Positions 58,608-63,382 of a stretch of DNA of 64,000 bases are shown here, piece by piece. Origin of the DNA: a virus. How positions within the stretch are numbered: the stretch's first letter is position 1; the number at the start of each line of letters is the position of its first letter. The notes beneath the pieces were generated by a model. It worked only from the letters and a program-made list of their open reading frames with translations. It did no database searches and was not told the origin of the DNA. The position numbers and the translations under genes are program-made. The stretch is from the IMG/VR virus record IMGVR_UViG_3300045988_153745; one strand, 5' to 3'.

Positions 58608-58636
58608 TTGACAAAATATCAAAAGTATGGTATAAT
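58608..58636 (+). promoter_or_regulatory. Plus-strand perfect consensus promoter, unit 1 of a 4-copy module
   Basis: TTGACA aaatatcaaaagtatgg TATAAT. Confidence 0.65.
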
Positions 58637-58641
58637 GGTAA

Positions 58642-58695
58642 ATACCGGCGAAGCCGGACGCCTTCCAGGCGATGATTTTCTGACGAAAATTTTAG
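58642..58695 (+). ncRNA. Short plus-strand RNA with two hairpins, copy 1 of 4
   Basis: AUACCGGC-GAA-GCCGG ACGCC-UUCCA-GGCG, then a U-rich tail. The four copies share the first stem and covary in the second stem. Confidence 0.45.
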
Positions 58696-58708
58696 TCATA
58701 ACTAAAAA

Positions 58709-58728
58709 GGTAGGCATTTCTGCCTACC
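58709..58728 (-). terminator. Intrinsic terminator of the HAD phosphatase gene
   Basis: GGTAGGCA-GAAA-TGCCTACC hairpin followed by TTTTT on the minus strand. Confidence 0.6.
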
Positions 58729-58740
58729 CGCAACTGACTA

Positions 58741-59190
58741 TTATATTAAATCTTTAAGTCTTTCAATAATATCCTGTCTCGCGTCTATCGTGCAACCCTG
58801 TGACCAACCGCGTCTTACCTTTTCATTATCATCAACTAATATCTGAAATCCGCCTAAATGTCTAGTACAATTGGCTTTTGTTGTGCCATACTTGACAAGA
58901 TGTACTTCATCATAAGGGAAACCTATCTGCTCAAGCCATGCTCTCTTAGCACTGCGAACAGCCGCGTCATATTCTTTATTGCTTTCCTTGCTTAACCAAC
59001 TTACAATAACAATCTTCCAACCATTAATCTTGAGCGTATTAATCAAATCGTTTAACATTGTAGGCTCATAAACTGGCTGTGCTATCTCATAAGGGCGAGT
59101 GCTACAATTCTTTAAATCTTCAAGCCAACCCTCAACTCCATAGAAATCTGCTATTGTTCCGTCCATATCAAAAACTAAAATTTTATTCAT
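58741..59190 (-). CDS. HAD-superfamily 5'(3')-deoxyribonucleotidase-like phosphatase
   Basis: ILVFDMDGTIADF is the HAD motif I DxDGT, and the size of 149 aa is typical of NT5C-like enzymes. Confidence 0.65.
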   Translation of the reverse strand: MNKILVFDMDGTIADFYGVEGWLEDLKNCSTRPYEIAQPVYEPTMLNDLINTLKINGWKIVIVSWLSKESNKEYDAAVRSAKRAWLEQIGFPYDEVHLVKYGTTKANCTRHLGGFQILVDDNEKVRRGWSQGCTIDARQDIIERLKDLI

Positions 59191-59244
59191 ATTATATACC
59201 TCTTTTCTTTTTTTAGATTGTCGGGGCTGAAAAGCCCCAACTTA

Positions 59245-60216
59245 TTAACAATACCCCTCAAGCATTAACATTAAGCCCTCAATCTTGCTTACATAAGAAT
59301 TATGTGTCATCTGCTGACTAAGATAATTATTAAAGGCTTCAATGACTACTGGAATAGACTTTGGTCTCTTGTTAATAACATAATCATAAGTTGTACCCAG
59401 TTCTTTGAAAGGAAAAGCCTTGAGTGTTGGTTCAACCTTGCCTTTCTTTAATGCCTTTGTAAGAATATCAGCTTCTATCTCACTATCGCTTAATGCGGTA
59501 TGGTCCTCAGTGAAATCATATTTCTTGTTTAAATACTGGAAGCTAGTTTCTGCGGAAGATTTAAAGAACTCTCCGCTGTTAGTGATTAAGCTATTGTCAA
59601 GACAGAAGTTTCTGTACTTATCAATGTTGATTAATCTCTCACAAGCTACTGCCCATAAGTCCACGATAGGAAACTCAAAATCTCTTAACTTGAATACTGG
59701 TTTAAGATACTCTGGATTACTCTCTCTATCATCTTTATATCCCCTAACAATCTTCTCACAACTCATTCTCTGCTTATCTTCCCAGTACTGATATCCTGGC
59801 GCGTAAAGGTGTGCGATGTACTGTTCTGTAAAAGGAATTGCTTTCTTGTAATCAAATGCGGCATTGTATGCACATGTACAAGTACACATTTCCAAATCTT
59901 CCAGTAACTCTGCAACCATATCATTCCAGTTACGAACCCCTATTTTACCCTCAGCGAGAAGCTGTTCATAGATAGGACGCTTATTGCGGTAATAAGCCGT
60001 ATTGAAGATTGCGGGTACAAAGAAAGTTTCCTGAATAAGATAATTAACTCTCTTTACTCTGTTACCTAATCTGTCTGTTATTACCCAGCCTATATCATAG
60101 ACTAATGGCTTGGCAATCGCAATCTTCTGTTTCTGTTTTGGGTTCTTTGCAATCTCATTTGCAAAAGGTAATGTAGCTGTCTCCGTGTCCAATGTTAAAT
60201 AATATTTCTTTTTCAT
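59245..60216 (-). CDS. DEDDh 3'-5' exonuclease (DnaQ, RNase T or oligoribonuclease-like)
   Basis: Exo I LTLDTETAT, Exo II AYNAAFDY and Exo III HTALSDSEIEADIL. Confidence 0.7.
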   Translation of the reverse strand: MKKKYYLTLDTETATLPFANEIAKNPKQKQKIAIAKPLVYDIGWVITDRLGNRVKRVNYLIQETFFVPAIFNTAYYRNKRPIYEQLLAEGKIGVRNWNDMVAELLEDLEMCTCTCAYNAAFDYKKAIPFTEQYIAHLYAPGYQYWEDKQRMSCEKIVRGYKDDRESNPEYLKPVFKLRDFEFPIVDLWAVACERLINIDKYRNFCLDNSLITNSGEFFKSSAETSFQYLNKKYDFTEDHTALSDSEIEADILTKALKKGKVEPTLKAFPFKELGTTYDYVINKRPKSIPVVIEAFNNYLSQQMTHNSYVSKIEGLMLMLEGYC

Positions 60217-60432
60217 TTCTAAATGATACCTCTTTTCTTTGATTTCTATGTGTTTATTATAACACCCTTTTTATTATTTTGTCAAGTGGTTTTTTAAAAA
60301 ACTTGTTTTCAATCTCGGTTGTTATCTGTTTTTCTCTGTTCCCCTTGAACAATTATAATTATAGACCTACTACAAGAGAATGTCAAGCATTTTTTAGGAA
60401 AAAATTGTTTTTATTTTAGTACATAAAATCGC

Positions 60433-60461
60433 TTGACAAATTACCGAAAGTATGCTACAAT
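60433..60461 (+). promoter_or_regulatory. Plus-strand consensus promoter, unit 2
   Basis: TTGACA aattaccgaaagtatgc TACAAT. Confidence 0.6.
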
Positions 60462-60467
60462 GCAAAA

Positions 60468-60505
60468 TTCCGGCAAAGCCGGTCGCGCAGAGCGCGGTGA
60501 AAATG
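60468..60505 (+). ncRNA. Short plus-strand RNA with two hairpins, copy 2
   Basis: UCCGGC-AAA-GCCGG UCGCGC-AGA-GCGCGG. Confidence 0.45.
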
Positions 60506-60530
60506 TAAAGAAAAAGTGCGGATTTCCGCA

Positions 60531-61795: not shown

Positions 61796-61801
61796 ATCAA
61801 A

Positions 61802-61840
61802 ATACCGGCGGAGCCGGACGCCCACAGGGCGGTCTTTTTT
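61802..61840 (+). ncRNA. Short plus-strand RNA with two hairpins, copy 3, ending in a U6 tract
   Basis: AUACCGGC-GGA-GCCGG ACGCCC-ACA-GGGCGG UCUUUUUU. Confidence 0.5.
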
Positions 61841-61885
61841 GAGCATAAAAAGCTGATGACTATTAGTTTAGTCATCAGCTTACAG

Positions 61886-62251
61886 CTACTTTTTCTTTCT
61901 ATGTTTTATCAGCGATAGCGAGTATTCATTCTCGCCTATGTTAAAGGTTAATTCTTTCTGCGGATTAGCTGTTTGGACATTACTAATTTTGCCATTCAGT
62001 GCCATTCCCTCAAGTAAGGTTTTTAAACACTCGATAAAATCAACTTTTTCATCATCGAGTTTTACTTCTCGTGGCTTCCGCGGTTTCTTTTCAGCTTCCG
62101 CACCCTTAACATAATTCTTTATTCCCTTAGCTTTGATTTCCATTTCCGCCATTTCCATAGCTTCTTCTTTTGTGACTGGCTCTCCGTCTGCTTCACATTC
62201 CTTGAAAATCTTTAAAGCTAACTTCTCTAAGGCTTCTTTTTTACTATCCAT
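61886..62251 (-). CDS. Hypothetical protein
   Basis: 121 aa with a long palindromic terminator downstream at 61849..61880. Confidence 0.45.
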   Translation of the reverse strand: MDSKKEALEKLALKIFKECEADGEPVTKEEAMEMAEMEIKAKGIKNYVKGAEAEKKPRKPREVKLDDEKVDFIECLKTLLEGMALNGKISNVQTANPQKELTFNIGENEYSLSLIKHRKKK

Positions 62252-62307
62252 GCCCTATACCTCTTTCTTTTAAATTGGGCGGTGTATTTCAACCGCCCAT
62301 CCGCAGA

Positions 62308-62685
62308 TTAGACAAGTGAGAAGATTGCCTTGCCCTTTTCCTCTTCTCTCTTTGCAGTGCCATTGGCAACCATAATCTTGAGAAGTGCAACTACTTTCTG
62401 ATTAGAAAGCGCCTGAACCGCTTCATCAGCAGGGAAGTCTTTCATAGCCTTGAGCATAATCTGAGTAGAAGTACCCTTGAAACCGTCAAGGACAACCTTG
62501 AGCTTCTCAACCAGTGCTTCATTAGCCTTAGCTTTCTTATCAGAACCAGCCCCAGCCTTAGCTTTCTTCTTCTCAAGGAGTTCCTTTTCGTGCATAAGAT
62601 ATGTCTTGTACATCTCATTATCCTGAATAAATTCCTCATTTAACATAGCCTCGATAACCTGTAACTTTGTAATCTTCTTTTCCAT
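62308..62685 (-). CDS. Hypothetical protein, a paralogue of 56993..57373
   Basis: Identical N-terminal 30 aa and a Lys-rich middle. Confidence 0.5.
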   Translation of the reverse strand: MEKKITKLQVIEAMLNEEFIQDNEMYKTYLMHEKELLEKKKAKAGAGSDKKAKANEALVEKLKVVLDGFKGTSTQIMLKAMKDFPADEAVQALSNQKVVALLKIMVANGTAKREEEKGKAIFSLV

Positions 62686-62797
62686 AATGCAATACCTCGC
62701 TTTATTATAATATTTGAAGCTGATTTTTATTTTTTAATGTGGTCGATTGATGGCTTCCTTTCCTTTCCACATTTATATGATAGCACATTTTATTGCG

Positions 62798-63088
62798 CTA
62801 GTCAAGCATAAATAATGTCATTCCGGCTATTTCCTTTTCTACCACTTCTAAAGTATCTAAATGAATAGTGGCTCTGACTATCTTCCAACAGCCAGTTTCA
62901 AACTTGTTGTGTTCATGGCGGCGTGGTAGTCTCTCTGCGGCATGGACTGCACTCTGACAATCTTCAAATACACCATCTATAACATAAGCAACTTGCGTTC
63001 CCATGCAATCTAAGTATCTCATTACTTTTAAGACATACTTAGTCTCTGTTTTTCTTGGTACATGCTTAGTCTCTGTTCCCATAACCAT
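62798..63088 (-). CDS. Hypothetical protein
   Basis: 96 aa with a TTGACA-17-TATAAT promoter at 63102..63130. Confidence 0.45.
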   Translation of the reverse strand: MVMGTETKHVPRKTETKYVLKVMRYLDCMGTQVAYVIDGVFEDCQSAVHAAERLPRRHEHNKFETGCWKIVRATIHLDTLEVVEKEIAGMTLFMLD

Positions 63089-63144
63089 TACTTCCTTTCT
63101 ATACCCTTATTATATCACTTAGGTATCTATTTGTCAAGCATTTC

Positions 63145-63173
63145 TTTTTTTTTTTTTTTTTTTTTTTTTTTTT
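63145..63173. repeat. 29-nt poly(T) homopolymer, which is poly(A) on the coding strand
   Basis: Uninterrupted T29 immediately upstream of the -35 of the 62798..63088 promoter. It replaces the conserved element found in the other three repeat units. Confidence 0.8.
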
Positions 63174-63307
63174 GTTCGGGTTGTTTAGCAATCTCATTTG
63201 TTATCTCCCTTACAAGTATCATTATAGCAGACTGCCCCAAAATTGCAATAGTCAAAACTGCACAAGATTTCGGGAAAATTTTTGTGCAACTTTATATCAT
63301 TTTTCTC

Positions 63308-63336
63308 TTGACAAAAAGCGCTAAGTATGCTACAAT
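63308..63336 (+). promoter_or_regulatory. Plus-strand consensus promoter, unit 4
   Basis: TTGACA aaaagcgctaagtatgc TACAAT. Confidence 0.6.
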
Positions 63337-63342
63337 AGTGAA

Positions 63343-63382
63343 ATACCGGCTTTGCCGGACGCGCGCTGCGCGGTCTTTCTGT
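63343..63382 (+). ncRNA. Short plus-strand RNA with two hairpins, copy 4
   Basis: AUACCGGC-UUU-GCCGG ACGCGCGCUGCGCGG UCUUUCU. Confidence 0.45.

Follow-up and report, generated by a model that had tools for sequence, protein, structure and literature searches.

Why would a phage whose genes nearly all run one way place the strongest possible host promoters between its early operons in the "wrong" direction? The question is raised by IMG/VR virus record IMGVR_UViG_3300045988_153745, of which a stretch of 64,000 nucleotides was analysed (the window). It is an AT-rich (~32% GC) part of a large uncultivated gut phage and has nearly all its genes on the minus strand; encoded in it are 23 tRNAs, an RNA ligase and a topoisomerase II subunit. 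Its 56.6–64 kb block is a run of small minus-strand genes, most without a recognised family, into which most of the window's perfect TTGACA-17-TATAAT promoters fall. Within this block lie four units in which a plus-strand promoter is followed at once by two short hairpins. These promoter-plus-hairpin units are selected structures with compensatory stem changes, not chance divergent promoters, and each is one arm of a repeated inter-operon cassette, since the four intergenic regions align over ~300 bp (64% mean identity) with the promoter and hairpin blocks conserved.

The promoter-hairpin units

No plus-strand promoter in the 64 kb comes near consensus other than the antisense promoters of the four units and one at 52791 that serves the plus-strand gene cluster. 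The promoter scan gives TTGACA-17-TATAAT, matching consensus at 12/12 positions, in unit 1 (58608–58636) and unit 3 (61767–61795), and TTGACA-17-TACAAT, 11/12, in unit 2 (60433–60461) and unit 4 (63308–63336); the -10 is TG-extended in 4/4. All open reading frames (ORFs) with ribosome-binding sites around the units are on the minus strand, and downstream of the units the plus strand has only short ORFs overlapping minus-strand genes with ribosome-binding sites, so that the promoters do oppose all neighbouring genes, as a preliminary description of the locus had stated. The discriminators of the antisense promoters, that of unit 1 included, start with GG (GGTAAAT, GGAAATT), while those of the gene promoters are A-rich (AAATACAGAAAG). 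By established work on the discriminator in E. coli, the GG start would predict very stable open complexes at the antisense promoters.

The hairpin sequence CCGGCNNNGCCGG occurs exactly four times in the window (58645, 60470, 61805 and 63346; 0.01 expected), always beginning 8–9 nt past the antisense -10. It has the CCGGC-NNN-GCCGG form first described, with a loop that changes from copy to copy (GAA, AAA, GGA and TTT in units 1–4). RNAfold returns a single fold for 4/4 units: AUA, a 5-bp stem with a 3-nt loop, one nucleotide of any kind, and another 5-bp stem with a 3-nt loop. The second stems are CGCCU/AGGCG, CGCGC/GCGCG (plus a U.G pair), CGCCC/GGGCG and CGCGC/GCGCG in units 1–4; the pairing is kept as had been claimed, in registers that differ slightly from those quoted at the time.

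On the plus strand of unit 1, hairpin 1 (CCGGC-GAA-GCCGG, 58645–58657) lies 1–3 nt past the inferred transcription start, and the terminator-like hairpin 2 (CGCCU-UCC-AGGCG) with its U-rich tail AUGAUUUUCU follows at 58659–58681. Units 3 (CCGGC-GGA-GCCGG, CGCCC-ACA-GGGCG and tail GUCUUUUUUG, 61805–61841) and 4 (CCGGC-UUU-GCCGG, CGCGC-GCU-GCGCG and tail GUCUUUCUGU, 63346–63382) are built alike. The U-rich ending originally ascribed to every copy is lacking in unit 2 (CCGGC-AAA-GCCGG and U-CGCGC-AGA-GCGCG-G, 60470–60497), where hairpin 2 is followed by GUGAAAAUGU. In a terminator consensus scan, hairpin 2 passes in units 1, 3 and 4 and at 56545, with stems of just 5 bp, and fails in unit 2 and in the more distant phages L017, L036, L065 and L070 considered below.

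Selection on the paired structure is evident from an alignment of 12 distinct copies from the window and its relatives, in which pairing is kept in 98.3% of cells and both sides have changed in four of the ten pairs. Sliding the 3' partner by 1–3 columns leaves just 23–52% paired, so the earlier argument from covariation survives proper alignment of the second stems. The window has 21 perfect GC-rich hairpins of 5 bp where shuffled sequence gives 1.3 (16x), and a covariance model search recovers five full copies and no others. Rfam has no match to the region at gathering thresholds, and a permissive scan of 56300–64000 gave chance-level matches (E above 0.6); no tiny ORF with a ribosome-binding site was found in the units.

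Architecture of the inter-operon cassette

In gene direction, the cassette consists of a terminator; hairpin 2 and hairpin 1; the antisense promoter; a TTTCGGGAAAAT motif; a sense promoter, P1; a leader; a further sense promoter, P2; and a ribosome-binding site. At all four loci the unit faces the terminator of the preceding operon and stands back-to-back with the next minus-strand promoter, an arrangement that the preliminary description had reported correctly. The terminators, all on the minus strand, are those of operon 60216–58741 for unit 1 (58709–58728, intrinsic), operon 61614–60531 for unit 2 (60515–60532), operon 63088–61886 for unit 3 (61850–61881) and gene 63592–63407 for unit 4 (63392–63411), and the gap between unit and terminator is 18–36 nt. 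The genes upstream of the units encode a HAD phosphatase-like protein and proteins of 114–149 amino acids. In unit 3 the U tract and that of the sense terminator lie tail-to-tail (GTCTTTTTTgagcatAAAAAGC), the usual layout between convergent transcription units.

On the minus strand, the -35 hexamers of P1 start at 58548, 60386, 61722 and 63248, 44–59 bp from those of the antisense promoters in 4/4 units. Unit 1 has P1 at 58520–58548 (TTGCAA-17-TATACT), a 27-mer (CAGATAACAAATGAGATTGAAAACAAA) at 58468–58494 and a 12/12 P2 at 58423–58451, followed by a third promoter (58405–58377) and the ribosome-binding site. The sense side of unit 2 (60256–60386) comprises P1 at 60386–60358, the 27-mer at 60302–60328 and P2 at 60285–60256; that of unit 3 (61650–61722), a 12/12 P1 at 61722–61695 and the 27-mer at 61650–61676, with P2 absent; and that of unit 4 (63109–63248), P1 at 63248–63221, a degraded 27-mer at 63181–63207 and P2 at 63137–63109. 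The leader after P1 contains ...CAAGGGAACAG...CAGATAACAAATGAGATTGAAAACAAG. The 27-mer therefore lies 3' of P1 and 5' of P2 (-35 starts 58451, 60285 and 63137). Its conservation had been recognised before; it had also been placed upstream of the minus-strand -35, which is right for P2 in units 1, 2 and 4 and wrong for the first promoter. Being downstream of the first minus-strand promoter, it is predicted to be transcribed, and its position makes it a putative leader of P1 combined with an A/T-rich element in the UP position of P2. The larger cassette, the missing U tract of unit 2 and the transcription of the 27-nt element from another promoter had all escaped the preliminary description.

Between the antisense promoter and P1, a TTGTGCA/TGCACAA repeat surrounds TTTCGGGAAAA, and the TTTCGGGAAAAT motif is flanked by TGCACAA/TTGTGCA in units 1 and 4. 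The cassette might be a bidirectional hub organised around TTGTGCA / TTTCGGGAAAA / TGCACAA, in which backward firing drives or times P1 through local negative supercoiling or a shared bound regulator, and the RNA is no more than a by-product to be cleared away by the hairpins and terminator. The regular distance between the two -35 hexamers would suit such coupling, as would the inverted repeat around GGGAAAAT between the promoters of units 1 and 4, motifs that recur in distant cassettes, the topoisomerase II encoded by the phage itself, and the linear form in which phage DNA is injected. We nevertheless think it improbable: units 2 and 3 are without TTGTGCA arms, a distance of ~290 bp separates the antisense promoter from the next sense promoter in L017/L101, which means that tight coupling is not conserved, consensus promoters should open unaided, and the conserved structured 5' hairpin would be left unexplained.

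Two observations on this part of the cassette are recorded separately. The inverted repeat TGCACAA(G)...TTTCGGGAAAAT...TTTGTGCAA (58560–58600 and 63255–63300; also in contigs L197, L189, L124 and L205), of which TTGTGCA-like motifs are arrayed in relatives (e.g. ~7 copies in 290 bp of L017), looks like a putative binding site of some regulator or a variant -35. In unit 4, a run of 29 T (63145–63173) stands where other cassettes have the start of the leader/UP element; because the close relative L006 has just 9 T there, the run is read as slippage or an assembly artefact.

Relatives, early gene order and the PeSL cassette

A pattern scan of viral contigs retrieved two near-identical genomes of 145 and 150 kb, which were also the only ones returned by a protein search with the neighbouring 323-amino-acid gene. 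The units are conserved in the close relatives L006, L008, L021 and L094, and the near-identical genomes have a fifth unit just beyond the right end of the window, with loop GGG and a different second element. The stem of hairpin 1 is identical in the five copies of this lineage. The loops flip between orthologous units (TTT/AAA in units 2 and 4, GGA/GAA in unit 3), indicating that their sequence is not under selection. Another double hairpin, in L003, had been considered as a further unit and was rejected, as it is unrelated and lies inside a 326-amino-acid ORF.

Unit 5 points into a noncoding array of ~300 bp (L103:5940–6210; L006, reverse strand, 7670–7990) with ~14 AGTTAG/CTAACT motifs, many of them arranged as CTAACTNNAGTTAG palindromes and spaced 10, 20, 40 and 60 bp apart; the array may be an origin or a site of protein binding. 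L004/L103 have a stretch of ~1.2 kb between units 4 and 5 that is missing from L006/L102, with the junction inside a cassette.

More distant AT-rich phages (L017/L101, L036, L065 and L070), which share early genes with the window at 24–59% identity in a different order, also have a CCGGC-type double hairpin after a perfect promoter, the CCGGC being partly a search result as it was the query. Their second stems differ again (CGGCC, CCGCG, CCGCA and GCGCC) and are not followed by a U tract. The order of the cassette is the same in L101, L065 and L036, and L036, L065 and L070 have another perfect promoter on the opposite side of the hairpin, directed towards it. Homologous early genes stand in different order between the cassettes of L036 and L070. 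As a particular case, homologues of the HAD-phosphatase-like and 323-amino-acid genes are reversed in order in L036 (2275–4572) relative to the window (58741–60216), with a cassette between them; the reversal indicates what would be cassette-bounded gene shuffling.

The nearest described system is the PeSL cassette of T4-type phages (PMC2839356, PMC4122927), in which a strong early promoter of the sigma-70 type and a GC-rich stem-loop likewise form an intergenic composite that is repeated, flanks small genes annotated without function in a variable early region and provides repeats in which indel and gene-swap junctions fall. Both features recur here: the composite is repeated (four copies in the window, five in relatives), and the cassette is a junction for indels and shuffling (L006/L102 versus L004/L103; gene order in L036). 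The orientation that defines a PeSL is different. Its promoter aims at and drives the next gene, and its stem-loop, upstream of or within the promoter, terminates the previous one; the antisense arm does neither, as its promoter and hairpin point backward and the hairpin opens its own transcript, so that only the terminator and P1/P2 of the cassette fit the PeSL scheme. The present cassette also has up to three further sense promoters, and its predicted hosts are Gram-positive (Clostridia) in contrast to the enterobacterial hosts of PeSLs.

The same evidence bears on a role at the level of DNA, with the unit acting as a PeSL-like mobile or recombinogenic module that shuffles early genes, or as a promoter-plus-GC element that primes or activates replication, in the way that transcription acts at some phage origins. 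Such a role would accord with the junction inside the cassette between units 4 and 5, the altered early gene order in L036 and L070, the firing of unit 5 into an array spaced in multiples of 10 bp, and the documented PeSLs. It is very unlikely, in our view, to be what the units are kept for: recombination follows from repetition itself and leaves the maintained 12/12 promoters and paired stems unexplained, the iteron-like repeats adjoin unit 5 only, and a terminated RNA of 40 nt would be a poor primer, its hairpin competing with R-loop formation.

Distribution beyond the window lineage

The search of other phage genomes proposed in the preliminary description returned the promoter-hairpin module from close, distant and wider phages. 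Perfect promoters facing each other at 30–60 bp occur at at least 120 loci in viral contigs, where chance would give roughly ~0.02. Among the matches listed, 43 facing-promoter cassettes have their -10 hexamers mostly 33–39 bp apart (up to 47), and in about a third of the matches listed the distance is 36–39 bp, corresponding to one GC hairpin; the GC element is ~27 nt long whether it holds one hairpin or two. As in the window, a terminator lies upstream, and the flanks further hold P1, the motifs TTGTGCA and TTTCGGGAAA, and a leader that starts with ...CAAGAGGGAACAG. In these wider cassettes the hairpin lies 6–8 nt past the antisense -10, after GGAAATT or GGTAAAT as in the window, and 0–1 nt past the facing -10. 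The window's cassette order was retained in eight wider cassettes inspected closely and in phage phAss-1, and in many related phages the hairpin is separated from the terminator by a perfect sense promoter, P3. The cassette occurs 4–10 times per genome and in dozens of viral contigs.

A megablast and blastn comparison of the region with 50,697 GenBank phage records found no relative. When the cassette of a relative was used instead, the only match among GenBank phage records was phAss-1, a metagenome-assembled phage whose description is silent on promoters and gives Clostridia (Eubacteriales) as the predicted host group. The whole genome of the cultured Enterocloster phage PMBT24, which is placed near phAss-1 in the phAss-1 paper, has no such cassette. 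In a scan of genome contigs, the cassette appeared on contigs of metagenome-assembled genomes only, mostly in Clostridia or Lachnospiraceae bins with single contigs in unrelated taxa. In the literature searched we found no description of it.

Beside the GC-hairpin class, the face-to-face promoters include recurrent AT-rich spacer families (contigs L104–L223), with acagtcaaggcaatacgcaagagcgtaatatttgtatctggtaaatat in at least six contigs. Separately, a consensus promoter with the CCGGC-NNN-GCCGG hairpin (CCGGCNNNGCCGG) is found directly 5' of tRNA and 5S rRNA genes in bacterial contigs of 55–63% GC (L022, L024, L025, L038, L058, L091 and others). The matches were selected by the search pattern itself, so that enrichment cannot be shown, and we treat them as a lead only; the phage may have copied from its host the practice of placing a leader hairpin at the 5' end of stable-RNA operons.

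A possible stable small RNA as the product

The position of the hairpin, 6–8 nt past the antisense -10 and thus closing the 5' end of the RNA, raises the possibility that the product itself matters: an abundant, very stable tiny RNA. Through its structure it would sequester a host nuclease, sensor or RNA-binding protein, being a sponge or decoy, or, as a cis-antisense RNA, it would change the stability of what it pairs with: read-through transcripts, the terminator hairpin at the 3' end of the upstream mRNA, or the 5' end of RNA made from a facing promoter. Stem-loops at the 5' terminus are established RNA stabilisers (PMC3997798), and stable small RNAs are built in this way, with a hairpin cap at the 5' end and a terminator at the 3' end; the identical hairpin 1 stem in the five window-lineage copies would also be in keeping with such a product. 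We consider this explanation possible, if on the doubtful side. The hairpins vary within genomes, from one cassette to the next in a relative and in the further backward-facing perfect promoters of the distant phages, which carry unrelated GC hairpins. Together with the flipping of the loops, this leaves no conserved sequence for a specific partner. Moreover, the predicted 40-nt form of units 1, 3 and 4 lacks a single-stranded body, and no Rfam family matches.

Known antisense RNAs offer a partial parallel. Lambda oop, RNA-OUT/RNA-IN of IS10 and RnaG/icsA of Shigella (PMC2879508) are likewise short structured noncoding RNAs that are transcribed from a constitutive promoter of their own, converge on a neighbouring gene and end at an intrinsic terminator, and the geometry of the facing-promoter relatives, whose start sites would be ~23–25 bp apart (an estimate from -10 spacing), recalls the IS10 and Shigella pairs. 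Those RNAs, however, overlap a specific target mRNA with a defined pairing region, whereas our units stand at every operon boundary with varying sequences. If both terminators work, units 1, 3 and 4 are predicted to have no overlap with the sense mRNA (a gap of 18–36 nt); unit 2 and those relatives in which the U tract is missing are predicted to overlap the upstream terminator, and their RNA would cover it and be complementary to the 3' end of the mRNA.

The leader stabilisers of ompA, papA and aprE (PMC3997798) resemble the units in having a stable hairpin a few nucleotides from the 5' end, and the predicted host group, Firmicutes, is one in which 5'-end-dependent decay dominates. Their geometry (a hairpin within ~4 nt of the 5' end) fits the units if transcription starts 7–8 nt past the -10. 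Known stabilisers differ in protecting a downstream coding mRNA; nothing coding follows the units.

Other identities can be treated more briefly. The 6S RNA module of lambda, PR'-tR', has a strong constitutive promoter with a terminator almost at once after it, and HK022 put consists of two stem-loops one nucleotide apart that come immediately 3' of a promoter; both serve the read-through of polymerase into same-strand genes beyond them, in the case of the late promoter PR' with Q antitermination, their size and sequence are unlike those of the units, and there are no plus-strand genes downstream of the units. For the same reason, and because the loops are variable, antitermination of the boxB/nut or put type was ruled out. 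The promoters of N4-type virion polymerases, giant enzymes, are DNA hairpins with a stem of 5–7 bp, a 3-nt loop and conserved flanking bases; only the stem and loop sizes match, and the flanks here are sigma-A promoters. A CRISPR-repeat mimic (RNA anti-CRISPR) was ruled out, as the hairpins differ between cassettes of one genome, and so was a type I toxin-antitoxin system, the upstream genes being ordinary and a unit present at every boundary.

A proposed control of polymerase traffic at operon boundaries

We tentatively prefer, as a reading that falls somewhat short of probable, to see each unit as a miniature antisense transcription unit, acting in cis, by which RNA polymerase traffic is controlled at the boundaries of early operons. 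Its point of departure is what the DNA displays directly: promoters, hairpins, covariation, position and conservation. Host sigma-A RNA polymerase would bind the full-consensus antisense promoter and start at an A ~7–8 nt downstream, hairpin 1 would close the 5' end of the RNA, and hairpin 2 would be transcribed next. In units 1, 3 and 4, hairpin 2 and the U tract would act as an intrinsic terminator and a ~40-nt RNA would end before the neighbouring gene. A polymerase nearly always present on the antisense promoter, bound or firing, would oppose sense polymerases leaking past the upstream terminator and, where there is a facing sense promoter, compete with it, as polymerases on two facing promoters could presumably not be bound together. 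Such opposition and competition would set the amount of transcription crossing the operon boundary, with the hairpins, helped by the U tract or the neighbour's terminator, keeping the antisense transcript short, self-folded and out of the upstream gene.

This proposal draws on the location of the units at operon boundaries, the lack of a hairpin sequence conserved across cassettes, and a terminator-like double hairpin elsewhere in the window. The latter, CCGAC-UUU-GUCGG-U-CGGGC-GCA-GCCCG-UUCUUUU (plus strand, 56531–56564; hairpins 56531–56557), has the geometry and AAATT lead-in of the units with different stems, and is conserved in L006 and L008 with a changed loop in the second hairpin. It faces the terminator of the first minus-strand gene (56601–56623). 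As the plus-strand gene cluster ends (at 56399) ~130 nt before this double hairpin, which has a U tract and lacks a consensus promoter, it is probably the terminator of that cluster, which fits a terminator role for hairpin 2. The intervening 130 nt contain TTTCGGGAA and the extended -10-like sequence TGAGATAAT, and 56400–56564 may alternatively be a degenerate cassette or a separate small RNA.

Among the functions listed in the preliminary description, that of an insulator or roadblock fits best with the fixed position at the boundary beside the upstream terminator. A trans-acting small RNA working by base pairing and a sequence-specific decoy, both on the same list, are disfavoured, because the flipping loops and the hairpins that differ within genomes argue that neither loop nor, generally, stem sequence is selected.

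Several points weigh against control of polymerase traffic. The start site, the termination, the polymerase occupancy and the effect on sense transcription are all predicted steps of the model. Unit 2, L017, L036, L065 and L070 have no U tract after the hairpin, and without it the antisense transcript should run into or through the upstream terminator. A P3 promoter between terminator and hairpin is odd if the goal is to stop sense transcription at the boundary, and a separate 5' hairpin beside the terminator looks like the design of a stable RNA, which an effect of transcription alone would not need. Finally, the folding energies have no strand bias (24 versus 17 cassettes among the 43 compared from the matches listed) and do not single out either RNA strand as the one under selection; both plus-strand G.U pairs in this comparison come from L041, a contig of 1.6x coverage, and are given no weight.

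Other features of the window

Outside the 58–64 kb block, a second class of minus-strand promoters is found at 2287, 10949, 13374, 37224, 41367, 49011 and 55309, with TTGATA or TTGAAA, a conserved spacer ending ...aaaWtttaTGa, TATAAT and then atatat; unlike the TTGACA class, it may mark another temporal class. Inside the minus-strand operons, GC hairpins lie between cistrons, just 5' of ribosome-binding sites, at 59216–59240, 60890–60909 and 62273–62300, with sequences such as GGGGCT-N4-AGCCCC and GGGCGGT...ACCGCCC; one scores as terminator-like on the plus strand, and they may be stops for antisense transcripts, or processing or stability sites. A c-di-GMP-I riboswitch aptamer match (20402–20475, minus strand; 62 bits, E 8e-10) is located between a DUF2828/DUF7788 gene (20519–21994; PHROG 'RNA-binding protein') and ORF 19936–20409.

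Significance for gut phages of Clostridia

The units are real, conserved and more widespread than could be told at first, and the structural claims made for them stand; the functional options are narrowed, and the function itself is what we infer. In its broadest form, the proposal is that a full-consensus antisense promoter around a GC hairpin, often with a second full-consensus promoter facing it at a distance of mostly 33–39 bp, constitutes a widespread, undescribed cassette of early-operon boundaries that yields abundant 5'-capped tiny RNAs and works as a programmed controller of host polymerase on the incoming genome, for example as a trap, as a timer by which early operons are switched off, or as a structured RNA decoy for a host nuclease or immune sensor, which we regard as rather unlikely to hold in full.

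Early gene control in the large phages of gut Clostridia is essentially unstudied, and almost none of these phages have been cultured. The cassette is easily recognised; in phage genomes from metagenomes it is a marker of operon boundaries and early regions, and it explains the local shuffling of genes there. If the role in polymerase traffic control or that of a functional tiny RNA is true, the cassette would supply compact parts for synthetic biology in Firmicutes, namely an insulator, a full-consensus promoter and a 27-nt hairpin cap, and it would represent a new and widespread layer of transcription control in phages.

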